Shown here: positions 4,594 through 60,281 of the stretch, piece by piece | Layout: the number at the start of each line of letters is the position of its first letter | Numbering within the stretch: position 1 is the stretch's first letter | Virus record (IMG/VR): IMGVR_UViG_3300033463_000015 | Origin: a virus | Taxonomy: Duplodnaviria > Caudoviricetes | Strand: one strand, 5' to 3' | DNA length: 64,000 bases | Translations under genes and position numbers: made by a program | Notes under the pieces: generated by a model | What the model saw: only the letters and a program-made list of their open reading frames with translations | Databases searched by the model: none | Told to the model about the DNA's origin: nothing

Positions 4594-4665
4594 GTCCAGT
4601 TAGCATAATGGTTAGTGCGTCGCCCTCTCAAGGCGAGGATATGAGTTCGATTCTCGTACTGGGTA
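4594..4665 (+). tRNA. tRNA-Glu(CTC)
   Basis: TCGCC-CTCTCAA-GGCGA. Confidence 0.85.
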
Positions 4666-4748
4666 CTCTCACCTTAGCAAAAGCGGTGACTAAACCGATG
4701 TGCGGTTGGCTGACCTTAAAGCTATTTTTTATTATAGTGAGGGATTTT

Positions 4749-5732
4749 ATGCTAGATATTATCATTCCCGTCTACAATAATTAGCAAGGATTGACAGAAA
4801 CTTTATAGTCTATAAATCCCGCTATTATGAAGGATATTACAATTACAATTATAGATGATTGCTCTTCTGTACAATATGATGTAAAAACTATTCGTATGCC
4901 GCAGAATGGTGGCCCCGGAGCCGCACGCCAATATGGTATTAATCATACAATAGAACCATTTATTATGTTTGTAGATGCAGGAGATACTTTTGTTGATTTT
5001 GATTCGTAGTTAGAAATGATAGAAACAATAAAACATACAGATGCTTTATTTATTTCTTTTCTTCATAATACAATAAAAGAAGATGGTACAATTCGTCTTG
5101 AAAAGCATACTAACAATAGATTACACGGTAAAGTTTATCGTCGTAGCTTTTTAAATCAATATCACATAACATTTTGTTAGGGAAAAATTGGTTCATACGC
5201 CAATGAAGATATTGGCTTTAATTTTATATGTCATCATATATTAGAAGATAAAAATTTAGAAAATAAGTTTATATGTATAGATGTTCCATTAATTAATTGG
5301 ACTTATGATGAACAATCTCTTACTCATATAAATAATAATGCTTATGGATTTGTAAAATAGGTTCCTGGGCTTATTGAAAATACTCAACATATTGTAGAAG
5401 TATTAGAAGATAATGATTGTAATGCAGAAATAATTGCTAAAATATTATATAATATGCTAGGTAGATTATATACTGATTTTGTCAATGTTGCCGCATTTTG
5501 TCCAGAAAGAATTGATATTACTTGGAAACAATGTAGAACTTATTATCTCAATGATGTATTGCCCTACAAGGAATATAGAGACACTAATCTAAATAATATC
5601 TATATTGGCGGCTTTATGTATAGAGTAATGACTTGGAAGAAAAAAGTTCCAATAAATTATAATCGTTTTCTTCAAGAGTTAGAAAATTGTGAAAAAGCGC
5701 CAAAAAGATATTTTGAATTTTATCAATTATAA
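4749..5732 (+). CDS. Glycosyltransferase family 2; TAG=Gln
   Basis: MLDIIIPVYNN...IIDDCS...NGGPGAARQYG...FVDAGD motifs; fragments joined through TAG only. Confidence 0.85.
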
Positions 5733-6420: not shown

Positions 6421-7362
6421 ATGGGCGTATATACAGCAACTGATTTACGACAAATGTAGTCTTTACCATTAGAGGCTAAAATCGTAAAATCTCAAGAACG
6501 GATCAAAGAATATTATGATTACTTCAATGGTGAAGTATACGTATCATTTTCGGGCGGAAAGGACAGCACAGTTCTTCTTCATTTGGTAAGACAACTTTAT
6601 CCAGAAGTAAGAGCAATGTTTGTCGATACTGGACTTGAATACCCAGAAGTAAAAGAGTTCGTAAAGCAGCACGAAAATGTCAGTATTGTGCGGCCAGCAA
6701 AAACGTATAAGCAAGTTATTGAACGCTTTGGCTATCCAATGATTAGTAAAATGACTGCTAATTGTATCGCTACGGCTCGCCGCGATCCGAATTCAACTCG
6801 CGCAAAATATCTTACTGGAGAAATTCCAACAAAAGCATTTGGCTATGGCAATGGTCGATGGTGGCATATGGTAACAGATGCTCCATTCAACACAAGTGGT
6901 TATTGTTGTGAAGTAATGAAAAAACAACCTGCCCATAAATTCAATCGAGAAACTGGACTAGTTCCAATGATAGCTACATTGGCTGATGAATCAGTCAATC
7001 GGCGGCTGACTTGGTATAAAGAAGGTTGTAATAGTTTCAAAGGTAAGGATTCTCAAAGTAAGCCTTTATCATTCTGGACCGATCAGGATATATATCATTA
7101 TATAAAAGATAATAATATTCCTTATTGTCCTATATATGGTGATATTATAGAAAATGAAAAAGGCGAACTAGTAACAACTGGTGTTGAACGCACAGGTTGT
7201 ATCTTCTGCGGTTTCGGCGCGCATCTTGAAAAAGAACCTAATCGTTTCCAACAGCTAAAAGAAACCCATCCAAAATTGTGGGATTATTGTATGCGGCCAT
7301 TGGAAGAAAATGGATTAGGTATGCGTGAAGTTTGCGAATTTATGAAAATTCCAATTGAGTGA
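6421..7362 (+). CDS. PAPS-reductase family protein; TAG=Gln
   Basis: LRQM[TAG]SLPLEAKI, SFSGGKDS PP-loop, RTGCIFC. Confidence 0.85.
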
Positions 7363-7377
7363 GAAATCACTCTTTGA

Positions 7378-7451
7378 TGGCCCTTAGCTCATCAGGTTAG
7401 AGCAGCAGTCTTATAAACTGCAGGTGCTGGGTTCGACTCCCAGAGGGCCTA
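7378..7451 (+). tRNA. tRNA-Ile(TAT)
   Basis: GCAGT-CTTATAA-ACTGC. Confidence 0.85.
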
Positions 7452-7530: not shown

Positions 7531-8117
7531 AGGAGATATTAGGTTAGTAAATTTTGAACCAAGTGAAGATGTGCTAACCACACAGCTTGGGCTATCCGTA
7601 TAGTAGCTGTCACTGCCCGAAGGATACTTTTGGTTAAACAGCCGCCAAAACAGCAATGTTAGGCGATAAAGGAGAAACTCCAAATACTAAGGATAGGCGC
7701 TTGGGTGTTCGCAATCAAAAGCACTTTTCCTCTCGGCTACATAATAGAAAGCTTGTTGAACAGACGAGCCGAATCCAGATAAGGCATTGGGGTGGTAGCC
7801 AATGCAAACTCTGGAAATACCATAAGTAGCTATCGGCGTTGATGAAAGCCGGAAACGGCATATAAGAGAGGTTTGTGGTGGGAGTAGGCCAAAGCGACGT
7901 ACAAGTAATATTGAATAAAAGAATTATTGAATATTGCTGAATGGTTTGGCTGAAACTTGAAGGTAGTCAATCCTTCCTACACACGGCGAAAGCGGATCGA
8001 AGAAGCTATGGGATCGCTACCTATGGCTCAGCCTTCGGTTCTGTAGTGGCTGAATATGATTGAAGAATTACTCGGGTACGGCGAAGGTCGCAACAGTTTA
8101 CTAACCTAATATCTCCT
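7531..8117 (+). ncRNA. ROOL-like large RNA
   Basis: 587 nt; long terminal stem AGGAGATATTAGGTTAGTAAA/TTTACTAACCTAATATCTCCT; own promoter 7485-7512; internal motifs (GAAGGTAGTCAATCCTT, GGATCGCTACC, GCTCAG, GTGGCTGAATA, GAAGGTCGC) match ROOL as recalled. Confidence 0.75.
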
Positions 8118-8604: not shown

Positions 8605-8636
8605 ATCAGTCGCGTTTTTTATTAGGAGTGAAAGAT

Positions 8637-9578
8637 ATGCCATTACCAGTATTATTTGCAGGAACAAGGCCACTTGGCAGAGCAGAAAATATTACCGCAT
8701 TATATGAGGCTTATTAGGGACTGAAAAAATATATTCAAGTTAGCGGAAGTAACGACCATCCAGAAATACGTTCTGGCAATTATAGAGTTTTAATTATTGA
8801 TGACTTTGGCTGTCGCAATCCTGGTAAATGTATTTTACTATGGCACGCTATTTAGGGCGGCAAATATATCGGTCTTAATTAGCCATTCCCTTATACTTCA
8901 TAGCAAAATATAAATAAAATTGATTATATTATTGCCGCAGGTGATGACGCTATTCCAATGTGGTAGCAATGTACTAATTTAGCCGCAGATAAAATTTTGC
9001 CGCTAGGAATGCCACGAACCGATTAGTTTATTGGCAAAACAAAAGGTGATGGGCATACATTATTGGCTAATAAAAAAGCTTATTTATATGCTCCTACTTT
9101 TAGACTTTCTAGTGAGCCATTATTCTTTTAGTTAGATTATGATTGGTTAGATAAACAATTAACTGATGATGAGATATTCGCAGTAAAAGCACATATGGTT
9201 GGAAAGAAAATTTTATCTAAAAAATATAATCATATTGTGGAAATCTCACAAAACGAGCCATCAACTCCATATTTATGTGATTGTGATGTTGTAATAACTG
9301 ATTATAGCAGCATTATATTTGATGGCTATTTACTAAATAAACCTGCTATTTTATTTGAAAAAAGTAGCGGTTATGCCGCTAGCCGTGGAATGTATATGAA
9401 TTATCCTAATGAGTATTGTTCTAAATATGCGACTAATGAATAGGAGTTATTAGATTTATTACGTTCTACTAATGAACTTACAGAAGTAGAAAGAAAATGT
9501 ATTCAACGAGTAGCGAATAAATGCGATGGAAATTCTTGCCAGCGCATTTGTGAACTAATTAAAAAGTTGAATTTTTAA
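8637..9578 (+). CDS. CDP-glycerol glycerophosphotransferase (TagF/TagB-like); TAG=Gln
   Basis: WHA, LGMPRTD, YLYAPTFR and DVVITDYSSIIFD motifs; open except for TAGs. Confidence 0.85.
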
Positions 9579-9678
9579 AATAATTTTACTTGACTTTTCC
9601 CAAAATTATAGTATAATATAATTGTACCAAAGGGAAATGGTGCCGATATAGCTCAGTAGGTAGGTGCGTCTCCTTGGT

Positions 9679-10163
9679 TTGAAAATCTGCTTTATTATGC
9701 TTCTTTTGGGAGGATGATAAAATGGAATTAAATACCAAACAAAAAGGTAATATTACTGAAATGCAATGTGCCGTTGCTTTTATGTAGCAAGGATACAAAG
9801 TTAGCTTTCCATATGGTGAAGATTGTAAATATGATATGATTGTAGATACTGGTAAACATTTATATCGAGTACAATGTAAAACTTCATCTAAATTACCAAA
9901 TTCAGAAGAAGGATTTAAATTTAAAACTAGATCAACTGTAATTACAACTCATGGAGTAAAAACATCTGGATATTCACAAGAAGAAATAGATGTATTTGCT
10001 ACAATGTACGAAGGTCAATGCTATGTAATATCTGTAAAAGATTGTGGCGTAAATGAAAAAATTTTACGTTTCCAATATCCTAAAAATGGTCAGCATAAAG
10101 GCATTACCTTAGCTGTAGATTACAAATTGGAGCAAACTAAAGCATTTGAGTGATTTTTAAACA
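9679..10163 (+). mobile_element. Endonuclease-carrying tRNA insert with no group I core
   Basis: Ends pair (TTGAAAATC/GATTTTTAA, TGCTTT/AAAGCA); only ~43 and ~10 nt flank the ORF. Confidence 0.7.
9722..10153 (+). CDS. PD-(D/E)XK homing endonuclease (I-Ssp6803I-like); TAG=Gln
   Basis: TKQKGNITE...PYGEDCKYDMIVD...RVQCKT motif. Confidence 0.85.
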
Positions 10164-10206
10164 AAGGAGAAGGTCCCCAGTTCAAATCTGGGTATCGGCT
10201 TCATAT

Positions 10207-10708: not shown

Positions 10709-11061
10709 GGGGTAGTTTTGGTTTCGACAGGTTATGAATGGTATTGAAATCACGGGTAGGCGGCGCACCTTACGCAGCAAACAATTGAACTGACAACGAT
10801 TATTTCTATAGCGAACTAAAGGCTGCTTAATTGCAGTTTCGCGCCTAAACAACAAACCTGCTAATCGGTAAATGTTTGCGGTTCAGAGATAGATTAGTAG
10901 ATTGGCTTCGGGCCAGCTGGTCTTCTCTATTCACAGTCCAACGAATAGAGTGGTGGAAGGATCATTCCCAGTTTGTCAGAACTTAAAACTGACTATCGTG
11001 TAAGTAATTTTCAATATTGGTTGTAGCTTGGACAGGGGTTCAACTCCCCTCTACTCCACCA
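10709..11061 (+). ncRNA. ssrA: tmRNA; tag (A)DNDYFYSELKAA*
   Basis: GGGGTAG...GGTTTCGAC 5' end, T arm and CTACTCC-ACCA 3' end with G3:U; tag ORF 10792-10830 ends in AA. Confidence 0.92.
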
Positions 11062-11389: not shown

Positions 11390-11818
11390 ATGGAGAATAC
11401 TAAAACAAAAGGACAAATTTCTGAAGCAAGAGTTTTATATGAATTTTAGAAGTATCATATACCAGTTTGTCTTCCTTGGGGAGATAATGAACGTTATGAT
11501 ATGGTTGCTGAATTTGATGGTAAATTTAATCGTATTCAAATAAAAACAGCTAATTAGGAAGAAAACGGTGCTGTATGCTGTTGGGCAAGAAGCTCAACAA
11601 ATCACACAACTAATAAAAAATTATCATCATATGAAAATGATGTTGATTACTTTGTCTTTGTTAATCAAACAAGGGACTGGCTAGCACTTGTGCCTATTGA
11701 AGAATTAAATGGGCAGAAAAGCATACGATTACGAATTAATCCACCATTAAATACTAATGGTAAAACTATAAGGTATTTTTCTGACTTCACATTTGATAAA
11801 AAATTTAATTCTCATTAA
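11390..11818 (+). CDS. Free-standing PD-(D/E)XK homing endonuclease; TAG=Gln (absent from ORF track)
   Basis: MENTKTKGQISE...PWGDNERYDMVAE...RIQIKT; paralogous to 9722-10153. Confidence 0.85.
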
Positions 11819-13649: not shown

Positions 13650-13789
13650 CTTTTGATAAAAAATTTGATATAATATATATAGAAAGTAGGAAATCAGCGA
13701 GTTCTCCCACGAATAAAGTTAGCGCTGTAAAGGGTGGGAACGGTAGGCAGATAGAAGTTGTGAGGTCGCTGATAGGCAACAGATGAAAT

Positions 13790-14052
13790 AGCCCCGTAGT
13801 TGAATGGTACAACACCGGTCTCTAGCCTTAATTGGAGCCTTATATGGAGACGTATAAGTGAAAATGCCGCTAATTCGGTGAAAGCTTAACTGCTAACCCC
13901 GAGCAAGGAGAAATCCGTGTGTAGAGACTTTACACGGCACATCTAGAACAGATGAAGATAAAGTCCGGACCACGATGTGAAAACAATGTGGTGAAGAAAA
14001 CCGTAATATCCCTCTGACGGAGGTTGTCTGGGTTCGAATCCCAGCGGGGCCG
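13790..14052 (+). tRNA. Amber suppressor tRNA(CUA), intron-containing
   Basis: Exons 13790-13823 and 13997-14052 give CCGGT-CTCTAAA-ACCG; long variable arm. Confidence 0.85.
13824..13996 (+). mobile_element. Compact group I intron (173 nt)
   Basis: U.G pair at 5' splice site (CTCT/GGAG), P3 TGCCG/CGGCA, P4 TTCGG/CCGAG, P7 GACTTTA/TAAAGTC, terminal G. Confidence 0.88.
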
Positions 14053-14054
14053 TC

Positions 14055-14233: not shown

Positions 14234-14367
14234 CTGGGTGTAGCGCAGTTTGGTAGCGCATCAGATTTGAAAATCTAGCATAACGGTAATGCTTTATATC
14301 AGAGTTCGATTCTCTGGATTTTCACGGGATCTGAGGGTCGTGAGTTCAAATCTCACCACCCAGACCA
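14234..14367 (+). tRNA. tRNA-Pro (TGG or CGG) with a 57-nt tRNA-like insert in the anticodon loop
   Basis: CTGGGTG/CACCCAG-ACCA, TCAGA/TCTGA anticodon stem; insert ~14269-14325. Confidence 0.85.
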
Positions 14368-16419: not shown

Positions 16420-16705
16420 GCGGGTATGGCGGAATAGGCAGACGCCACAGACTTTAATAAAAAGAGCACTAGAATAGGAAACTTTCTGAGTGAATGCTGG
16501 CTAATTCGGTGAAAGTCCTTATGGGATAACGCCGAGCTAAATGGTTTAAAACCTAAATGTGTAGAGACTATATACCAGCCACCTAAATCATAAGATATGG
16601 TGAAGACATAGTCCAGACTACAACGTGTAAGCGGCCATAGTAATATGGAGTAGTAGGAAAATCTGTTGCCCTCTGGGCGTGCCGGTTCAAGTCCGGCTAC
16701 CCGTA
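16420..16705 (+). tRNA. tRNA-Leu(TAA), intron-containing
   Basis: Exons 16420-16454 and 16658-16705 give ACAGA-CTTAAAA-TCTGT. Confidence 0.9.
16455..16657 (+). mobile_element. Group I intron (203 nt)
   Basis: AATTCGGTGAAA, GTAGAGACTAT and ATAGTCC core; inserted after U34 as in cyanobacterial tRNA-Leu(UAA) introns. Confidence 0.9.
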
Positions 16706-16756
16706 CTTATAATCAAAACACCTCCCTTTCTCTACGCGGCGGAAACGCCGCATTAT

Positions 16757-18475: not shown

Positions 18476-18961
18476 ATGCCTACATTGTATATTATGTGCG
18501 GTATTCCGGGGTCTGGTAAAACTTATTTTGCACGGAATTTTCTTCGTGCAGATGTAACAGTATCTCGTGATAATATTCGTTTCATGATGCTGGATGATAA
18601 TGAACAGTATTTTGACCATGAGGCTGAAGTATTTAACGAATTTGTAAAAACTCTTGTGCATCATCTTCATCATTTTGAAACAGTGGTAGCGGATGCGACT
18701 CATCTCAACATCTGGTCACGTAAAAAGCTTACAAATGCTATTGACAAATATATTACGGATTATCGCATCGTATATGTGGTATGCGCTCCTTCACTACAGG
18801 TATGCCTCTATCGTAACAGCAAGCGCACTGGCCGTTCTCGAGTACCAGACGAAATCGTAAAAGAAATGGCCGACAAATTTCATCCGCCCGTAACTGACGC
18901 TTATAAATTGGAAGATGAGCGAGCAGTAGGAGTTTGGTGGATTAATGGCGAACCAAAATGA
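18476..18961 (+). CDS. Polynucleotide-kinase-like P-loop protein (AAA_33)
   Basis: CGIPGSGKT, SRDNIR, VADATHL. Confidence 0.85.
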   Translation: MPTLYIMCGIPGSGKTYFARNFLRADVTVSRDNIRFMMLDDNEQYFDHEAEVFNEFVKTLVHHLHHFETVVADATHLNIWSRKKLTNAIDKYITDYRIVYVVCAPSLQVCLYRNSKRTGRSRVPDEIVKEMADKFHPPVTDAYKLEDERAVGVWWINGEPK

Positions 18962-19572
18962 ATAACATTTGGTTTACAAGCGATACACATTTCTTTCACG
19001 AGCAATCATTCATTTACGAACCTCGCGGTTTTACTACCACTATGGAAATGAATGAAGCGATAGTAGAACGATGGAACGAGGTAGTCCAAGAAGAAGATAC
19101 TGTCTATCATCTCGGCGATGTATTAATGGGACATTATGATGTTAATATCCTAAAAAGACTAAACGGTAATATATTTTTAATTCGCGGCAATCACGATACA
19201 TTGCAGAAAATTAGCGACATCTACGAAACTGGCAAGGTAACTAATATTATACACACTAGCGAACTTTTAAAGTTCGGCAAACTAAATTTCTTTTGTTGCC
19301 ATTATCCAGTTCTTACTGCTAATTTTGATGATAAGCATTTTTCGCAGCATATTATTTCCCTACATGGTCATTCACATCAAACTTCTAACTGGCTATTTCC
19401 TGAAAACCCATTTATTTATCATGTTGGACTTGATTCGCACGATTGTAAGCCTGTTCATCTAGACGAAATTACTACGGATATACGAAATAGATGGAATCAA
19501 TTAGGCTAGCTTCCAATCATGTTAAATAAAGATTATCATAAAAATTTCACCTCCGAAGAAAGTCAAGATTAA
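18958..19572 (+). CDS. Calcineurin-like metallophosphoesterase; TAG read through to TAA 19572
   Basis: SDTH, HLGD, RGNHD, LHGHSH. Confidence 0.85.
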
Positions 19573-19636
19573 TTTCTTGACTTTTTTTAAATTTATAGTA
19601 TAATATAAATGTAAAGAGGAAAGGGGAGATTATAGG

Positions 19637-20488
19637 ATGGCAGTCGCTAAATCTTATGAGAATATGGAAATTATGGGCGAGCCTTATGCGCATGATGGCG
19701 ATGCTAAAAAGCTTTATGTGCGGGTGAAAGGTCCGTGCCATCGGTGTGGCGGCTCCGGCCAGTATTCCTATAATCCTATGGATGGCACTCGTTGTCTTGC
19801 TTGCCGCGGTTGTGGCTATGAAATCAAGGAAGTCCGCTGGTATACTGACAAACAGCGTGAAGCTCTTGACCGCGCGGCTGAAAAGCGTGCTGCGGCCAAA
19901 GCTGTGAAGGTTGAAGAGCGGCGTGTGAAGTTCGCGGCTCGTAATGCCTTTGGCTTTGGTGAAGCTGGTTTCATCACTCTTTTCAAGGGTGATAACACCA
20001 TTCTTAATGATTGGGCTCATGAAACCAATCCCTGCCGTGCTCGGTTTAATCTCCTGTTCGGCTGGTTCTGCCCTTCTAAGCTTGAGATTGTTAATCTTCC
20101 CGCTGAAATTACTCCTGTTGTCCTCAAGTGGGAGGATGTTCACAATCCCGATGATCCGGAAGACCTGACTATGCGCGATGAAGCCGAAGTCCGCAAGCTC
20201 ATTCACGAACTACTTGATGATCAGAGCAAGAGTGAATATCAGGGTGAAGTCGGTGATTGGCTTGAGCGCGAAGTTACCATTAAGAAGAATGTTCCTGTTA
20301 ATGGCCGCTTTGGTGAAAGCCGCGTCCATATTATGGAAGATACTGATGGCAACGAATATGTTTGGATTACTGCTTCCAAAAACCTTGAAGTTGGCTTTAA
20401 GTGCGTGATGCGCATGAAGGTCAAGGAGCACAAGGAATATAATGATGTGAAGCAGACTGTCGTTTACTACTGCAAAATGAAAGGATGA
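19637..20488 (+). CDS. Hypothetical protein with CxxCGGSG Zn finger and OB-like C-terminus
   Basis: CHRCGGSG...CLACRG; own promoter. Confidence 0.7.
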   Translation: MAVAKSYENMEIMGEPYAHDGDAKKLYVRVKGPCHRCGGSGQYSYNPMDGTRCLACRGCGYEIKEVRWYTDKQREALDRAAEKRAAAKAVKVEERRVKFAARNAFGFGEAGFITLFKGDNTILNDWAHETNPCRARFNLLFGWFCPSKLEIVNLPAEITPVVLKWEDVHNPDDPEDLTMRDEAEVRKLIHELLDDQSKSEYQGEVGDWLEREVTIKKNVPVNGRFGESRVHIMEDTDGNEYVWITASKNLEVGFKCVMRMKVKEHKEYNDVKQTVVYYCKMKG

Positions 20489-20980
20489 TGAATATGACTC
20501 TGTATTTTGAGAATAGTCACGGTGTATGGCGCCCTATTGCGGAATGCGCTAACAAGGTTGATGTTGCTATTGCTATCAAGAGATTTCTCGATGAGCATAA
20601 TTACAAGAGCTATTATACTCGCATTTGGGATGAAGATGGCTGGCGGCATTATGATGTTGGCAGCTGGAGCGAGTTCTTTCATTGGCAGATGAGTTCGGAG
20701 GCTAAGATTCCTAATGGTAACGAGAGCAGCAGTTAAAATCTTTGATAATAAACAACAAAAAGAAATTATTATTCCATGCCATCGACATTGCGATGCTTTT
20801 CAGATTTTACATAATTTTGGATATACTATTAGAGATTTTAAAGAATTAGGACAGGGTTTCTTAAATGAGCATGATGAATATATGAGCCGTTTAGAAGCCA
20901 TGAAAGAAGCTAAACGATGCCGTCAAGTGTCAGATTTTAAATTAGTGACTAGTGAATTATATAGTGAAGATTTGTGGTAA
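20485..20980 (+). CDS. Two small hypothetical ORFs (20485-20736, 20714-20980)
   Basis: Overlapping ORFs; RHCDA...GFL pattern in the second. Confidence 0.6.
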
Positions 20981-20991
20981 GGAGTTAAAAT

Positions 20992-22212
20992 ATGTTAAAT
21001 TCAAAACAGGAACGCGAATTAGCTTATGTAGGAATTATTGATGGTATTGAACCCATCCTCGGATATGACCGTGTTGAACACGCTATTGTTGGCGGCTGGC
21101 GTGTTATTGTTCAGAAGGGTCAATTTAATGTAGGTGATCCGGCTATCTACTTTGAAATTGATTCCCGCGTGCCTTCTGATAAAGAATGCTTTGCTTTCCT
21201 TGAGAAGCGGCATTATAAGGTAAAAACGCTGAAGATGTGTAAGACTCTTTCACAAGGTTTGCTTATGCACGCCGAAGATTTTGGTTGGCACATAGGACTA
21301 AATTGTGGAGTGATGATGATTTATGATGGAGAAGAATGGCATAATCCTCTTGATGAATCCCGCTTCCTGACTAAACAACTTGGCGTAACTTACGCCGATG
21401 AAGAAGACAATCAGCGTAAGGCTCCTACTGTAGATAAGTATAAGAAAATGGCCGCTCGTCATCCCGAAATTTTCAAGAAATCTTGGGCTAAGTGGATGAT
21501 GAAACATAATTTTGGCCGCAAAGTGATGTTTTTCTTCTTTGGTAAAAAGAAAGATAAGAAGAATGGTTGGCCTTCTTGGGTTCAAAAGACCGATGAAGAG
21601 CGAGTGCAAAATATGCCTTGGATTCTAAATGATGATGGTGATTGGATTGCCACTGAGAAGATTGATGGAACTAGCACTACTTTCTCTATGAAGCGTGGTA
21701 AATTTAGACATAAATCTTTCTATGTCTGTTCCCGCAATGTATGCTTTGGAGAAGAAAGTAAAGAATGCTATTATGATACCAATGTATACTGGGAAATGGC
21801 TAAGCAATATGATATGTTCAAGGTACTATCTAATTTGTTGGCCGCTTATCCTAATGAAGAATGGATTACCATTCAAGGTGAAACTTTTGGTGATGGTATC
21901 CAGCGGCGAGATTACTCTCTCTGCGGTGAACACGATTTTCTAGCATTTAATCTAATTTTCTCATCTCGCGGTCGTGTAGGAACTCTTGAAATGATTGATA
22001 TTCTCGATCCATATGGAATTGAATGCGTGCCTGTGCTTAATTGTAAGATGAAAATTAATCAATTTGAAAATGTAGATGCTATTCTTACTTATGCAGAAGG
22101 TAAATCTTGTCTGGATAATTTACCTCGCGAAGGTATCGTATTCCGTTCTACTGATGGCTCTAAATCTTTTAAAGCTGTAAGTAATAGTTTTCTTCTAAAG
22201 TATCACTCTTAA
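20992..22212 (+). CDS. ATP-dependent RNA ligase (DRB0094/Rnl2-like, N-terminal OB domain)
   Basis: YFEIDS N-terminal module; motifs TEKIDG, SRN, QGE, EGIV, FKAVS. Confidence 0.88.
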   Translation: MLNSKQERELAYVGIIDGIEPILGYDRVEHAIVGGWRVIVQKGQFNVGDPAIYFEIDSRVPSDKECFAFLEKRHYKVKTLKMCKTLSQGLLMHAEDFGWHIGLNCGVMMIYDGEEWHNPLDESRFLTKQLGVTYADEEDNQRKAPTVDKYKKMAARHPEIFKKSWAKWMMKHNFGRKVMFFFFGKKKDKKNGWPSWVQKTDEERVQNMPWILNDDGDWIATEKIDGTSTTFSMKRGKFRHKSFYVCSRNVCFGEESKECYYDTNVYWEMAKQYDMFKVLSNLLAAYPNEEWITIQGETFGDGIQRRDYSLCGEHDFLAFNLIFSSRGRVGTLEMIDILDPYGIECVPVLNCKMKINQFENVDAILTYAEGKSCLDNLPREGIVFRSTDGSKSFKAVSNSFLLKYHS

Positions 22213-22911: not shown

Positions 22912-23182
22912 TTATGATGCCTTATGGGATGAGGCGTATGAAATGGCTTGCCAACGTGGCCACGAAGAAGGTACTTATGGAATTGATTATGAGGAAGAAG
23001 ATGTTGAACGTTGGGCGGAGGACTATTACTATTATCTAAAGGACTTAAAAGAGGTAGAAAGTGATGAATAAAGAACTATTAAGGCTCAAGTATGAATATA
23101 GAATTAAGTTACTAATGGCTCGCAATGAAGTTGGTAATATGGGAATTATCAATAAGTTGAAGAGAAAATTGAGAAATCTTGA

Positions 23183-23210
23183 AGCCCGCTAAAAAGCGGG
23201 TTTCTTTTTA
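23183..23210 (+). terminator. Intrinsic terminator
   Basis: AGCCCGCT-AAAA-AGCGGGTT followed by a T-rich tail. Confidence 0.7.
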
Positions 23211-23226
23211 TTTGCGGGGTGAAGAA

Positions 23227-25602
23227 ATGAGTAAAGAAGACTTTTCATGGCTAAGTTAGGGCAGATATATTTTTTTTAGTAGCTTATATAATAAAAATAG
23301 AGAAATTTATGATATAGGTCAATCACGTTTAAGTAATTTTAAAACTAATCATACGTTAAATTCAAACGATACAAATGGTGACGAATATGAAAATTTTACG
23401 CAACAAATTGATGCGTATCTTAATATGCTACAATCTTGGCACTAGATGCTGTTAAATTCAGAAAGAATGTTTTTAAAATCTAATTTAAGTATTCTAAAAG
23501 AAAACAATTAGTTTAATAATATTACAAGTATCTTAGAAAAAATGCAAGATGGGACTTCTATTACTGAAGATGATTATAGCAATATTATTGCTTTTATAAA
23601 CTTTATTCAAAATCACGGAGACTTAACTACCATGCAAGAAAATATTAAAACTTCTTTAAATAATATCTCCCATTTAAATAAAAATTTCTTATCTTTAACA
23701 AAAGAAGAAAAATAGAGTGTTATTCATAATTATATTACGTCTCCTAAAAATTATAATATAAATGCTGGAAAACTAATGCGTACTATTCGTATAGATGATA
23801 CTTTTATTAGTGCTTATATTAAATCAAATAGCCAATATTATGCAGAACGTGTTAATAAATTATTATCATCTTTAAGTGATTCAGAATAGTTTAAACAATT
23901 AGTGTATCGACAGTACGAAAAATATAAAAATGATAAAACTATTACTGTTGTAGGCTCTAATTTAACTAAATTAATTTTAAATATTGTTAGTGATACTATT
24001 ACAAAAGATCAAGGTCATCATAAAGGTGAACATACGAATAAATTAACAGAATTAGTAATACAAAGACTAGAAGACGCATTAAAAATTACTAATTTACATA
24101 AAGATATTATTACTCCTGCAAGTGGCGCTTTTACTCATGGAGGGAAACGTGAGTCTTTTGAAGAAATCGCAATGCTACATGTTAGAGAAAATTTAAGTCA
24201 ATTATTAGAAACTGCAACGAATGCTGAACAAATAATAAATAAATATGATAAAAATCAAGAGTTATTAAACAAATGGAAAAATTTAAAAAGATTAATTGCT
24301 CAAGGAACTGCAAAGGAGGAAACAATTGCTAAAAAAAGAAGAGAATTTAATGCAAGTTTACGAGAAAATATCAAAAATGCTTTTTCTAATAGAGAAGTTA
24401 ATGGTCAAATTTATAGTGAATTAACAGAAAATACAGATAAAATAAAATTTTTTTCTAATAGACAAATACAAAAAACTTTATCTTTCATGGAGAACCCTTT
24501 AGAGGCTATATTGCCTGAATTTGCTAATGGATGTAAATTAACTATTAGTAAAAACACTATGGCTGAGTTATTGGCGGCTAACCATATTGAAGAAAATATT
24601 CCAGGAATGATTACTGGTAAACTACCTGGTAGTTTAAATATGAAAGATGACGTTACTTTTATTTTAGATACTCAAACAGATATTTAGACCTTATTAGAAA
24701 AAGAAACTGAAGCTTCTATAAAACCCTTAATTACAGATATAAATAATACAATAAATTAGTATCTTGAACAAACGTTAGGTAATTTTGTTAAACATTATCA
24801 TGATGCAGGCGGCGGTGCTACAGACGTAGAATTAGCAGAAAAAACATATATAGAAGATATGAAGACGTTAATTGACCTTATTGAAAAATATTTATCTGAC
24901 ATCAATGCAGATGAAGATATTAGAGCAGCTGTATTAAATAAATTAAATAATACGTTAGTTGGCGGTATTAGTGTTAAAGATTATTCATTATATAATAATG
25001 AAATCGGATACCATGGCGGTTCTTTAGGCGGCAGCGGAGCTCCTGAAGCCGTTGTAAATAATATTACAAAAATGTACGAACTTGGCGGAATATCTCCATA
25101 TGATAAAGATGCTTTATTATTTGCAATTTTAAATTGTGCCCCTAGTGCTATCGGATCTCATTTAAAAGATTCATTAGAAGCATATTTACTAGGAGGCGCA
25201 GCAATGATCATGTTTGATGAAGGATTTTCAATAGGTAAAAAATATTTATAGGATATGAAAGAACAGGTAAATATAGAAAATTTTAGTGGCCCAAAAACTC
25301 TGGGATTATATTATTTAAATTTAACATATGTACCATCTTCTTATATTCTATATAATATTTATCAAAGCTTATTACAATTTTATCATAAGTTACCATCAGA
25401 TATTCATACTGTAAAAGTACGTAATCGTGTAGTAATTAATAATAACGCTTCAGAAAGTTTAATTCCTGATTCAGGGTCGTTACCAGAAAGATTCAAAGCC
25501 GCTGCTACCGCGGCAGAGAAACAAATTACTATTCAATTCTTATTTATGGCCGGAATGTTAGATATTCTTAATAATTTATAGAATAGTTTTAATATAAAAT
25601 AA
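23227..25602 (+). CDS. Large hypothetical protein (~790 aa), TAG-rich
   Basis: Single frame interrupted only by TAG codons; ends at TAA 25602. Confidence 0.75.
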
Positions 25603-29161: not shown

Positions 29162-29770
29162 ATGGACCCAGATTTCAATTTCCTAGTCCAAGATGATACA
29201 TCTGGATTAGACCCTGTAATGTATCAGTATTATCATCAAATGAATGATAATCGAACCCTTATTCTCAATACAGAAATTGATGAACGTATTGTAGAGATGA
29301 TTTATCTACCAATGAGAGATTGGGAAAATGACAGTGATACGCGCCCTGTGACGCTTATATTAAATTCACAAGGAGGTTGTGTATCAGACGGATTTTTCCT
29401 CGCTTAGTATATTAGCCAGTATAAGAAGCCGCTACATATTATTGTTCCTGGTTATGCTGCGTCTATGGCGGCTGTAATTCTAGCTGGCGGCGGCAATAAC
29501 GAAAATGTAACTCGTTTCTGCTTCCCAAGCACTTATGCGTTAATTCACGATGGATATGTGGCATTAAGCGCCAGTGAGGCTAAAACCGCTAATGATATTA
29601 TGGCTTTTAATAACAAGGTAGATGAAGACATTCGTAAATTCATCATTGATAATACTAACATTACCGCAGAAGAATATGATACCCACGCTAGGCACCAATG
29701 GTTTTTATCCGCTGATGAGATGAAGAAGTATAATCTCGTGGATAAAATTTATGGTGTTGATGCTGAATGA
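29162..29770 (+). CDS. clpP: ClpP-family protease; TAG=Gln
   Basis: LNSQGG, AASMAA, IHD, WFLSADE...LVDKI. Confidence 0.8.
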
Positions 29771-31005
29771 ATATAAACTTTTTAGATACTTCTGCGGTGC
29801 TCAATGGGGCTTATAAGAGATTTGAAAACGTATATATTAGTCCTATTGTATTAATGGAACTTGAAAATATAAAAACTTCACAAAAAGATGAGAAAACTAA
29901 GTATCTCGCACGGCAAGCTGTGCGAGATCTTATTACATCAAAAGATATACATTTTATTACTGCTGATATTAATTGTAAAAAGAAATTTAAAAAATATCCA
30001 TTTTTACAAGATATACACGATCATTGGCTAATAGCAGAGGCCGCGGCATTAAAGAATCATAAAGATGAAGTATTTTTTATGACCGCCGATGGCGCTTAGT
30101 TTTTGATTGCTAAATAGGTGCCGGAAATACAAGCTATTTATTTAGGAGAAATTGAACAACCACATATTGAGCATACTGAATATTGTGGATGGGGAAAATA
30201 TTATCCAACTACTTAGCAAATGGCGCAACTATATTAGTGCCCAACAATGAATACATTAAAATGTCCAACAAATTCTTTTGCTGAAATTTTTGTAGGAGAA
30301 GAATTAAAAGATGTATTATTCTGGAACGGACACGAATACACACCATTAAATTGTAAAGATATTAAAAATGTATATACTGGCGAAGTAATTAAACCTAGGA
30401 ATTTAGAGCAAAAAATGGCAATACATTTGCTACAAAACCAAGACATAAAAGTAAAGCTACTTACTTCTGCTTGGGGTAGCGGTAAAACATTATTGGCTTT
30501 AAATTACGCATTAGAACAAGTAGCCCGCGGCCGCTAGCCTAAAATTACTTTTATTCGTAATAATATTATTGTTGCTGATACAAAGGACATTGGCTTTGTG
30601 CCAGGAGATGTGCGGCAAAAGATGAGTATGTGGGGTGGAGTAATAGCTGACCATTTAGGCGGTCAAATGATGCTGGACCAACTTATTGATGATGGCATTA
30701 TTGAAATATTCCCTATTTCTCATATTAGAGGTCGTTCTATAAAAGGTATCATCTTTTGTGATGAATGTGAAAATTTAAATGATAAATTAGTAACATTATT
30801 ACTTAGCCGCGTTGAAGATGGCGGCGAAATTATATTCTGTGGCGATGTTGCACAAATTGATAGCCCACGATTTGAATAGAATAATGGTATTAGAGCTATG
30901 CTAGATAATTTAGTCGGCGACCCATTATTTGGAACTGTAAAATTATTAAAATCAGAGCGTGGCCCAATTCCACAATTGTGCGATAAAATTATTCCGCCAA
31001 GATAA
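29767..31005 (+). CDS. phoH: PIN-PhoH family protein; several TAG=Gln
   Basis: FLDTS PIN start, PRNLEQ, GSGKT, IRGRS, DECEN, GDVAQID. Confidence 0.85.
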
Positions 31006-44620: not shown

Positions 44621-44653
44621 TCCTAACTATACTTTCACAGGAGTGTGATGATT

Positions 44654-45649
44654 ATGGATTTGGATATTTTCTCTCTTGAACCATCTAAAATTTCTCGTGA
44701 TTTAAAGGGTAAATACATCCTGATTTATGGCCAGCCTAAAACTGGTAAATCTACGTTCGGTAGTCAGCTACCACGTGGATTGTTCCTAAACTTTGAGTAG
44801 GGCACTAATGCGCTCGCAGGTATCCGCAGCGTACCAATCCTACGGTGGTCTGATTTTAAGAAGGTTCTTTCGCAGCTGCGTAAGCCGCAGGCTCGTGAAA
44901 TGTATGACACTATTGTTGTTGATACTGCGTCTATCGCGTGGCAGCTTTGTGAAAAGTATGTATGCCAGCGTGAAGGCGTAGAGTCAATTAGAGATATTCC
45001 TTGGGGACAAGGTTGGGGTATGTTAAGAAATGAGTTCGCAGAATGCTGGCGTGAAATTACTCTTCTTGGCTTTGGCATTCTTTTCATCGCCCATAGTAAA
45101 GAAAAGCCTACAGAAATGCAGGACGAGGAAGGAAATACAATTACCGCAGTTGCGCCTGACCTACCCAATCAGTGCTATACAATTATCAACTCTATTGTTG
45201 ATATTATTGGATACTTACAGGTTCAAATGAACAACGATGGAACCTCAGAGCGCTTTCTATATACTCGTTCAACTCCAACCGTATTTGCGGGCAGCCGCTA
45301 TCAGTATCTCGCTCCAAAAATTAAGTTTGGTTATCAGGAGCTTGTAGATGCTATTGGCTCCGCGATTGATATGGCGGTTGAACGCGATGGCGCGCAGGTA
45401 ACAGACCACACCGAGTTCGCCCAGATTAAGGACCGCCCATTCCCAGAAATTATGGAAGAAGCGAAGGCTATCTGGATGAAGTATCTTAATGATACTACTA
45501 CTGATGAAGAGAAAGATCAGCATCTCAACATTATGCGTGATATTATCCGCAAGGTGTTTGGCACCGAGGACTTCAAGTTAAGTCAGGCAGTGCCTTCACA
45601 GGCAGATTTGCTTGAACTCTTCATTTCAGAAATGAAAGACCTGATCTAA
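44654..45649 (+). CDS. AAA_24/Sak4-like ATPase; TAG=Gln
   Basis: YGQPKTGKST, IVVDT, FIAH. Confidence 0.8.
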
Positions 45650-59285: not shown

Positions 59286-60281
59286 GTGCTGTATGGCATA
59301 ATTGGAGCGTTGTGTGTTGTAATTATTATTCTAATTATTAGACTTAATCATAAAGTTAAAAGTGATAGAGCTAATATAGAATAGGAAAGAAAAGAATTAC
59401 AAGAAATAGGCACACAATTATATAGTGCAAAATTATAGTGTAGTAAATTAGAGCAAGAAGTTAATATGCGCGAATAGCAACTTAATAAACTTCAAACCGA
59501 TACTGCCGCAGCATAGGATTAGTATCGTGAAGCTCTCTATCAAAGCACTACAGAAATAACTGATTATATAGAGACACAACGAGCCACACGGCTAAATGCT
59601 TTAGAGTATGAACTTAATAATAAAAAAGAAGTTTATGAAAAGGCATTGCAAGAGGTTCTGAAAAACTGTGAAGAATAGTCAGAATTAGCTAAATAGGCTA
59701 CTGCAGAAGTTGTAAAAGAATTACAAGATAAGATAAAATCTTGTGAAAATGCGGCCGCGTATGAGTAGCAAAAATATGAAGCACTATTAGAGCCACTAAA
59801 ACAGTATGAAAAAGATAAATAGTAGAAATTATTCTATACGATTTATCTTCCAGAAGAATTTAGAGATGATATTGATTTCTTACTTAATACAGTTGCCAAA
59901 AAGGTTCAACATCCAGACATTATTAGTAAATTAGTTTGGGCTGAATATGTTAAGCCGTATTTAGATGAAACACTTAAACGAGTAGGAATTAAAGCAGAAC
60001 CCGGTATTTATAAATTAACTAATATAGATAGCGGGAAAGCCTATATAGGAAAAAGTACAGATATTAAGAAACGTATTCAAGACCACTTTAAATCAAGCAT
60101 AGGAATTAAATCAATAGCAGATTAGTTCGTTCATCACGAGATATTACGCACTGGTTTCTGGAATTGGTCTATTGAATATATAATATATTGCGATAAAGAT
60201 GATTTGAGTGATTTAGAGAAATATTATATAGACTTCTTTAAGACACAAGAATTTGGATACAATCGCAAAGAGGGCGGTTAA
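59286..60281 (+). CDS. TM + coiled-coil + C-terminal GIY-YIG protein; very TAG-rich (absent from ORF track)
   Basis: GIYKLTNIDSGKAYIGKSTDIKKR; frame broken only by TAG. Confidence 0.75.

Follow-up and report, generated by a model that had tools for sequence, protein, structure and literature searches.

The tRNA-Thr(GGT) gene of this phage is split in its anticodon loop by a 485-nt insert that consists almost entirely of a gene for a homing endonuclease of the I-Ssp6803I family. The insert has no detectable group I ribozyme, and its two ends are base-paired, both mutually and to the anticodon of the tRNA that they interrupt. Related inserts are found in several other phage tRNAs, and this ribozyme-less family is widespread in phages. 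As for the fate of the insert, we incline, with reservations, to the reading in which it is not removed from the transcript and represents a selfish element on a tRNA-shaped handle; removal by proteins is the main alternative to be weighed against it.

The split tRNA-Thr gene and its endonuclease

The window analysed here, a stretch of 64,000 nt, comes from a 101-kb IMG/VR phage record that is ~57% complete; all features given below with window coordinates lie on the + strand. The first 18 kb of the window are a tRNA array, and the presence within it of ROOL RNA and tmRNA points to a bacterial host. ARAGORN, run in a mode that permits introns, detects four split tRNA genes in the window, Thr(GGT), tRNA(CUA), Pro and Leu(TAA), of which the first (9642-10200) is reported as one tRNA with a 485-nt insert. 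ARAGORN labels its anticodon GGA/Ser because it sets the junction one base off. The correct boundaries are given by L145 (IMGVR_UViG_3300028888_000681), a fragment of a closely related phage whose tRNA array is syntenic with ours at 83-99% identity. It harbours an uninterrupted tRNA-Thr(GGT) (reverse complement, 7361-7435) whose halves align to 9641-9678 and 10164-10200, which places the insert exactly at 9679-10163, between T36 and A37, and makes the anticodon GGT. Exon 1 (9642-9678, nt 1-36, 94.7% identity to the L145 allele) ends in TTGGT (nt 32-36), with the anticodon last, and exon 2 (10164-10200, nt 37-73) begins AA-GGAGA. The earlier note had proposed comparing empty and occupied alleles in related phages; both exist, and the empty allele in a syntenic relative suggests that the insert is mobile. 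A sigma-70-like promoter, TTGACT-16-TATAAT (9590-9617; 11 of 12 consensus positions), lies 24 nt upstream of the tRNA, and the same promoter cassette is repeated across the array.

The open reading frame (9722-10153) comprises 143 codons and a TGA stop, leaving 43 nt of non-coding sequence 5' of the ATG and 10 nt 3' of the stop, in agreement with the first reading of the sequence. It is preceded at 8 nt by a Shine-Dalgarno motif, GGGAGG (9708-9713), which is kept as GGAGG in the relatives L007, L010 and L013. The protein matches Pfam PF11645 (PDDEXK_5) with 97.2 bits (cut-off 26.1; E 1e-27) over residues 4-136 of 143, and the match therefore crosses an in-frame TAG at codon 22 (9785-9787). A phmmer search of PDB sequences returns 2OST, the structure of I-Ssp6803I (E 1.6e-4). 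The AlphaFold model of the protein (pLDDT 89.7) has the chains of 2OST as its top four Foldseek matches (TM 0.72, E 1e-9), followed by Hjc resolvases; EndA is absent among these structural matches. Across 20 homologues, the catalytic residues E13, D38, Q51 and K53 do not vary, and they align with the YD...VQVK residues of I-Ssp6803I. The assignment to the I-Ssp6803I family made in the earlier note is thus borne out by domain, sequence and fold, as is the location of the gene in a tRNA, the site being the anticodon loop. Given these matches, the intact reading frames of its relatives and the occurrence of TAG at an invariant Q, the enzyme is predicted to be active.

The in-frame TAG does not set this gene apart, as TAG is a normal sense codon throughout the phage genome. 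Pfam domains are read through two to eight TAGs in a glycerophosphotransferase, a PIN-PhoH protein, a glycosyltransferase and a free-standing paralogue of the endonuclease (11390-11818; 142 aa, two in-frame TAG) located between tRNA genes. Codon 22 of the ORF aligns with Q in its nearest homologues, one of the PhoH TAGs aligns with a Q of a solved homologue, and in other TAG-recoded phages TAG is found at the invariant Q51 and Q122 of the endonuclease. An amber suppressor is at hand in tRNA(CUA) (13789-14054), detected by ARAGORN, which contains a 173-nt group-I-like intron sharing core blocks with the group I intron of tRNA-Leu. Expression of the ORF depends on this phage tRNA, and hence on a gene that itself carries a group-I-like intron. 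Because TAG is sense genome-wide and the phage has its tRNA(CUA), the TAG of the ORF is neither a defect nor a special dependency. The dependence on amber read-through that had been proposed holds in that the suppressor is needed, but it is not specific to this gene, TAG being sense in at least four others.

The insert belongs to a sizeable family. The close homologues examined (60-83% identity) all occupy the same tRNA-Thr(GGT) site, with inserts of 482-488 nt. More distant IMG/VR relatives lie inside tRNA genes of phage contigs in 35 of 40 cases, with inserts of 451-483 nt and one of 789 nt; a further member, L089, was met by chance. Occupied tRNAs across the family are Thr, Asn, Lys, Arg(TCT), Ile and Pro. 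The 42 occupied tRNAs all keep a full cloverleaf: their acceptor stems have 6-7 pairs and changes within stems are compensated. The ORF is intact in 33 of 33 distinct members. One carrier is in culture, Enterococcus phage EFP01 (KY549443), where a 463-nt insert interrupts the tRNA-Asn gene at ~105.2-105.8 kb. This gene has escaped annotation, an example of how standard annotation overlooks the family, and our literature search found no published description of ribozyme-less tRNA inserts of this kind. The T5-like phages Pectobacterium phage My1 and Vibrio phage Chester have a free-standing PDDEXK_5 gene that abuts an intact tRNA. ORF-less copies of the insert with its paired ends were not found in ~1 Mb of tRNA arrays.

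Search for a ribozyme and pairing of the insert ends

The earlier note had argued that the insert leaves too little room for a group I ribozyme, and had named a covariance-model hit within the ORF as one of two findings that would speak against it. The group I model of Rfam (RF00028, Intron_gpI) has no match in the insert at E<=10, and none at E<=0.5 in 19 related loci. The same model recognizes the classic group I intron of tRNA-Leu(TAA) in the array (16420-16706) at 65 bits. Since the 173-nt group-I-like intron in tRNA(CUA) likewise escapes Rfam, further ribozyme tests were added. An nhmmer profile built from the two group I introns of this genome recovers just those two and nothing in the insert. 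When 30 diverged ORFs are compared in windows of 8 codons, the entropy of third codon positions is 1.0-1.5 bits throughout and in each window higher than that of positions 1 and 2; as third positions are the most variable everywhere, no conserved RNA core lies within the coding sequence. The non-coding part of the insert amounts to 53 nt here and shrinks to ~25 nt in relatives, whereas the Synechocystis prototype of I-Ssp6803I is a 655-nt intron with a 150-aa ORF and ~200 nt of ribozyme outside it (PMC1995217). The insert lacks a detectable P3-P9 catalytic core, as well as the terminal G and the U-G pair of group I introns: its last base is A here and A, T or C among relatives, in no case G, and the partner of T36 is A(-3), not G, in 29 of 29 sequences. 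Group II introns, the hammerhead and other Rfam ribozymes were likewise rejected, there being no GUGYG...AY ends and no Rfam match. The argument from lack of room therefore stands, and the element is, as far as sequence can tell, unable to splice itself.

A cryptic self-splicing RNA, that is, a much-reduced or novel ribozyme overlapping the ORF or acting with another phage RNA in trans, is in our view very unlikely. It could be invoked because the failure of Rfam on the local 173-nt intron makes a negative covariance-model result weak on its own, the 5' exon ends in U as for group I introns, and the phage has a large structured RNA (ROOL) and two group I introns nearby. Against this explanation speak the coding signal, beyond which the ORF has no nucleotide conservation, the negative result with the local intron profile, the small size of the non-coding part, the lack of a terminal G and the pairing of U36 with A. 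Furthermore, the 5' and 3' ends of the insert pair mutually and do not form P1 and P9/P10.

This mutual pairing extends the anticodon stem into a nearly continuous helix, as had been noticed from the outset, which we call the rod. Its 5' strand (9669-9694) runs through the anticodon stem (9669-9673), nt 32-36 (9674-9678) and insert positions +1 to +9 (9679-9687) into a second helix, helix 2 (9688-9694). The 3' strand (10138-10170) consists of the other half of helix 2 (10138-10144), a 7-nt bulge (10145-10151), insert positions -12 to -1 (10152-10163), A37 and A38 (10164-10165) and the anticodon stem (10166-10170). In the closing helix, GATTTTTAA (10152-10160) pairs with TTGAAAATC (9679-9687), and the GA of the TGA stop codon (10152-10153) is inside its 3' strand, so that the stop codon does overlap the closing stem, as the earlier note had it. 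Nucleotides 34-36 stand opposite 10161-10163, and nt 32-33 are paired with 10164-10165. In all, the anticodon stem is prolonged by 14 rungs, including one G.A mismatch and one G.U pair, followed by the bulge and the 7 bp of helix 2; the rod thus has 5+14 rungs and 7 bp, ~26 bp, and carries the ORF as a large loop. In a fold of the whole precursor, the tRNA body is intact and its anticodon stem is lengthened by the insert ends (z = -4.5).

Comparison of relatives confirms that this pairing is not due to chance. Taken over 29 distinct relatives, the helix is paired in 256 of its 290 cells, compared with a mean of 186 +/- 7.5 and a maximum of 212 in 5000 permutations of the 3' strand. The last three bases of the insert track the anticodon of the occupied tRNA, be it Thr, Asn, Lys, Arg, Ile or Pro (~30 distinct relatives): rung 34:-1 is paired in 24 of 29 sequences and rungs 35:-2 and 36:-3 in all 29, with six pair types at 35:-2. 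The exon bases T33, T36, A37 and A38 in the rod are constant in 29 of 29, while the insert rungs covary freely. All 32 distinct junctions share the same architecture, a prolonged anticodon stem, a small internal loop and a second helix, with a duplex dG of -19 to -41 kcal/mol; in the distal rod, length and internal loops vary between groups. An origin of the inverted ends at the DNA level, by target-site duplication or from a cruciform, was considered and rejected, as the geometry does not fit. In the Asn group (L038-L052 and EFP01), a TTGAC / CTGATGTG internal loop resembles a C/D-box or k-turn.

The least probable of all the explanations that we weighed is a functionless helix, in which a recent and purely destructive insertion has left pairing that is a by-product of the palindromic anticodon arm. 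The TT/AA pairs between nt 32-33 and 37-38 would indeed form in any such tRNA, and occupied and empty alleles are recent relatives. However, the rungs made by the insert alone are paired far above the permuted controls with many compensatory changes, such as A-U to G-C, C-G to U-A and G.U to A.C within the window's own group, and the second helix and the shared architecture recur at every one of the 32 distinct junctions. The counts of covariation thus already contradict this explanation.

Fate of the insert in the transcript

We rank the reading without splicing slightly above that of a protein-dependent intron; a smaller share of probability goes to mechanisms other than those weighed here. 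The element itself amounts to an endonuclease gene with a closing helix of ~50 nt. By analogy with its family, the enzyme would cut the uninterrupted anticodon-loop DNA of co-infecting relatives, for instance of the L145 type, and repair would then copy the element into the tRNA gene. In the transcript, the two exons would still fold as a tRNA body, kept together by the rod, and RNase P and RNase Z would trim this body as for any tRNA. The endonuclease mRNA would thereby come to sit on a compact, end-protected, tRNA-shaped handle, with the rod as a possible RNase III site. This copy of tRNA-Thr(GGT) would be lost to the phage, leaving ACY codons to the host tRNA and to the phage tRNA-Thr(UGU). 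The exons might be intact because occupied alleles are young as a result of repeated homing, or alternatively because the element needs the tRNA body. The earlier note had proposed instead that the endonuclease colonised a different, non-self-splicing intron. The lack of a ribozyme on which this proposal was built holds; the status of the insert as an intron, and the existence of an intron before the endonuclease arrived, were assumed.

Several observations favour the absence of splicing. Both would-be splice sites are in a stably paired helix. A 7-nt loop would be restored by one pair of cuts alone, 3 bp apart within that helix, and we know of no bacterial or phage enzyme, RNases included, that cuts a perfect RNA helix with a 3-nt stagger. 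RNase III was rejected as the splicing nuclease, as its 2-nt stagger would yield an 8-nt loop or the loss of T36; nevertheless, the insert ends form about two turns of near-perfect duplex, as in RNase III-processed intervening sequences, and RNase III is a possible processing nuclease of the rod. Bulge-helix-bulge splicing was rejected as well: the insert pairs with the anticodon as in introns of that type, but where these have two 3-nt bulges 4 bp apart, the rod has both sites in a continuous helix. No homologue of EndA (PF01974) was found in the six phage records searched (G000-G005). The variation in length and loops of the distal rod is as expected of a generic stem, and the absence of ORF-less rods from the arrays fits an element that persists only through active homing. 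The relatives of the enzyme that are free-standing beside intact tRNAs also point in this direction.

A protein-dependent tRNA intron is a serious possibility that we nonetheless hold to be less probable. The rod would mark the sites, an endonuclease would cut after T36 and before A37, 3 bp apart, and an RNA ligase would reseal the loop, an OB-fold enzyme in this phage and RtcB in EFP01; the adjacent kinase and phosphoesterase would assist if the ends need healing. The state of the exons argues for this reading and against that without splicing, as they look functional, with full cloverleafs and the universal bases T33, T36, A37 and A38 always retained. So does the re-adaptation of the insert ends to each anticodon, with six pair types at 35:-2. 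Such adaptation of insert to anticodon is a hallmark of the protein-spliced tRNA introns of archaea and eukaryotes. The reading frames, which never degenerate in 33 distinct members, fit a protein that is required for splicing; ORF-less rod introns, on the other hand, should persist if host proteins sufficed, and the arrays yielded none.

The gene content of the carriers bears on the same question. Candidate RNA heal-and-seal genes (18476-22212) directly follow the tRNA array and encode a P-loop kinase (18476-18961), a metallophosphoesterase (18958-19509) and an OB-fold RNA ligase (20992-22212). Of the carriers checked, 8 of 8 have a gene for an RNA ligase, an OB-fold ATP ligase in seven of them including the phage of the window and RtcB in EFP01; the OB-fold ligase is found in 7 of 7 metagenomic carriers, compared with 6 of 24 other records. 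Yet RNA ligases are common in large tRNA-array phages and occur in 8 of 12 complete non-carrier genomes, so that co-occurrence, uncorrected for relatedness, was discarded as proof of splicing. As for the nuclease, the hosts of the carriers seem to include both users and non-users of Shine-Dalgarno sequences, apparently of several phyla. A splicing nuclease would thus have to be universal or encoded by the element, which again speaks against protein-dependent splicing. A special case would be that the nuclease is the PD-(D/E)XK enzyme of the insert, acting on RNA, which we consider improbable. I-Ssp6803I reportedly cleaves DNA with a 3-nt 3' stagger, equal to the stagger needed here. A mimic of the half-site of the enzyme by the distal helix, which would make the rod symmetric, was also considered. 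Identity amounts to 70 of 290 cells, the null being 55 +/- 5.7, but the excess comes from the window's own group and is not general; the mimic was rejected, which counts against a protein-dependent intron.

We saw no intact tRNA with the same anticodon in five of six carrier records read (G001, G003, G004, G005 and G012; whole records for the first four, ~7 kb of array for G012). In G004, which is 100% complete, the split gene is the sole Thr tRNA, and intact tRNAs exist for the other 19 amino acids. This can be counted against an unspliced insert and in favour of a protein-dependent intron. However, the split gene was resident before the insertion under either reading, and redundancy of isoacceptors therefore does not discriminate between them.

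The arrays also hold ORF-less, tRNA-like inserts that have no selfish drive of their own. One, of ~57 nt, is in tRNA-Pro(TGG) (14234-14367); it shares TTTGAAAATCT...GATTTT(C/T)A with the Thr insert and folds as a tRNA without an anticodon arm. Homologous mini-inserts are found in six other places (L145 reverse complement 9633-9822, L073 9989-10179 and 639-761, L021 257-405, L168 12751-12884 and L100 5729-5920). All of them combine a 7-bp acceptor-like stem with a T-arm-like hairpin and a tail of N-CCA (or CAA), and the insertion site is after nt 34. A single removal rule, cuts 5' of the acceptor-like stem and after the tail, restores a 7-nt loop every time, which argues for some non-ribozyme tRNA splicing in these phages and lends weight to a protein-dependent intron. 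The mini-inserts look like substrates of RNase P. For the Thr insert, removal by RNase P together with RNase Z was considered, with cuts 5' of GAAAATC and behind the 'discriminator', and was rejected because a 13-nt loop would be left; the rules that fit the mini-inserts thus do not carry over, which counts against protein-dependent splicing of the Thr insert.

In its full form, the alternative states that these phages have protein-dependent tRNA splicing, in which the rod is cut on both strands, possibly by the PD-(D/E)XK enzyme of the insert, and a phage ligase rejoins the exons, the element apparently having arisen from a group I intron by loss of the ribozyme. We regard this complete scenario as somewhat unlikely. 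Either outcome would matter. The family is large and evidently successful; it occupies the classic position of tRNA introns and pairs with the anticodon in the manner of protein-spliced introns, without a ribozyme. If the insert is spliced, it would represent a new RNA-processing pathway and a present-day case of the route that has been proposed to lead from group I to protein-dependent introns, and if proteins do so, a bacterial-virus counterpart of the tRNA introns of archaea and eukaryotes. If it is not, a selfish gene routinely destroys phage tRNA genes and uses the tRNA body as a handle for its mRNA. To our knowledge, all known tRNA introns of bacteria and their phages are self-splicing, and the splicing of tRNAs by proteins is regarded as a property of archaea and eukaryotes.

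Comparison with known systems

The closest relative among characterized systems is the group I intron in the tRNA-fMet of Synechocystis PCC 6803, host of I-Ssp6803I (PMC1995217, PMC3384342), whose ORF is of similar size and of the same PF11645 family and whose target is likewise the tRNA anticodon loop just after the anticodon. That intron is self-splicing, with ~200 nt of ribozyme beyond its ORF. In the Thr insert, by contrast, the sequence beyond the ORF amounts to 53 nt, a core is not detectable, the terminal G is missing, and the ends pair mutually and with the anticodon.

Archaeal bulge-helix-bulge introns, some of which carry LAGLIDADG homing endonuclease ORFs, are cut by EndA and sealed by RtcB, a protein nuclease and a ligase being needed for their removal (reviews: PMC4090602, PMC6125680). 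They resemble the Thr insert as non-self-splicing inserts in stable RNAs that are able to carry a homing endonuclease and that pair with exon bases beside the anticodon. They differ from it in that the Thr insert has no 3-nt bulges, is located at 36/37 and not 37/38, and resides in a phage with a bacterial host. Six phage records also yielded no EndA homologue, and splicing of the Thr insert is putative.

The intervening sequences of bacterial 23S rRNA are removed by RNase III without religation, and the fragmented rRNA still works. They share with the Thr insert a long imperfect helix of the ends in a stable RNA that a universal host double-strand RNase could cut. In contrast, a tRNA broken in the anticodon loop should fail, and the 2-nt stagger does not fit a 7-nt loop.

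If the insert stays in place, other parallels come into view. Engineered tRNA scaffolds carry a foreign RNA on a lengthened anticodon stem, and this RNA then undergoes the processing of a tRNA and gains its stability. These scaffolds are man-made, and we know of no natural mRNA on a tRNA handle. In the Aeromonas phage Aeh1, nrdA is reportedly split by mobE into 'genes in pieces', the inserted homing endonuclease gene being tolerated. There, too, a homing endonuclease gene lies straight in a gene, with the difference that the protein pieces reassemble. Finally, free-standing homing endonucleases such as SegB of T4 and the F-Tfl enzymes of T5 are found in phage tRNA clusters and spread by DNA homing without an intron. 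These genes and those of My1 and Chester, which share the enzyme family, reside like ours in phage tRNA arrays. However, the free-standing genes lie between tRNAs and leave them whole, whereas the gene of the Thr insert is inside the anticodon loop, joined to the exons by a covarying helix.

The split tRNA-Thr(GGT) and the endonuclease family

The only defect seen in the split tRNA-Thr is a U12.U23 mismatch in the D stem of the occupied allele (window positions 9653 and 9664); at this place the empty allele of L145, a closely related syntenic phage fragment, has the pair A12-U23. A second PDDEXK_5 endonuclease gene, free-standing between tRNA-Lys and tRNA-Trp (11390-11818), is 27% identical and carries two in-frame TAGs. 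In the locus L025 of another phage record, and in the identical L028, L029 and L037, TAG occupies the position of the invariant Tyr37 of the endonuclease, and the loop of the split tRNA may be read as TTA or TTT; in these loci the code may differ, or the gene may not be intact.

TAG is a sense codon in the window, as Pfam domains span up to eight TAGs per gene (read-through genes at 4608-5732, 8628-9578, 23179-25602, 29767-31005 and 59286-60281). At ~32-54 kb, the long genes contain only one TAG, which lies in 44645-45649. The amber suppressor tRNA(CUA), which has a long variable arm, is itself split (13789-14054). Its 173-nt intron shares core blocks of 16 and 12 nt with the tRNA-Leu group I intron, and an Rfam search, even at E<=1, returned no match to it.

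Inserts without an ORF and other RNAs of the array

The anticodon loops of phage tRNAs also harbour a family of tRNA-like inserts without an ORF, located after nt 34 in every case. Its members are found in the tRNA-Pro of the window (14234-14367), which is the sole Pro tRNA of that record, in L145 (reverse complement, 9633-9822) and in loci of other phage records: L073 (639-761 and 9989-10179), L021 (257-405), L168 (12751-12884) and L100 (5729-5920). Each insert comprises an acceptor-like stem of 7 bp, a T-arm-like hairpin and an N-CCA tail (or CAA, or C), and a 7-nt loop would be regained by excision with cuts 5' to the stem and 3' to the tail.

The array itself contains a ROOL RNA (7535-8110, 332 bits) and a phage-borne tmRNA (10709-11061), both lying among the tRNA genes; a tmRNA also directly follows the split tRNA-Thr in the relatives L007, L008 and L010. 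Many array units are preceded by a repeated cassette of ~50 nt with the promoter TTGACT-16-TATAAT (9590-9617, with repeats near 1757, 2891, 5731, 7481, 13643, 15755, 18423 and 19577). The HDV-like ribozyme of F. prausnitzii has sub-threshold matches (27-33 bits) within phage tRNA arrays, at L004 546-600 and in the Asn-group locus L038 at 186-243.

Candidate RNA repair genes and the Asn group

Directly 3' of the tRNA array, an AAA_33 kinase, a metallophosphoesterase and an OB-fold RNA ligase (PHA02142 and PF09414) are encoded at 18476-22212. Together, these candidate genes constitute a full set for RNA healing and sealing.

An insert of the kind seen in tRNA-Thr(GGT) is present in a tRNA-Asn of the cultured Enterococcus phage EFP01 (KY549443; L176, 632-1167), whose GenBank record does not annotate the split tRNA. 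The EFP01 genome encodes RtcB, and no PF09414 ligase was found in it. The junctions of the Asn group, namely relatives L038-L052 and EFP01, share a conserved internal loop in which CTGATGTG faces TTGAC, and this loop resembles C/D-box or k-turn motifs.
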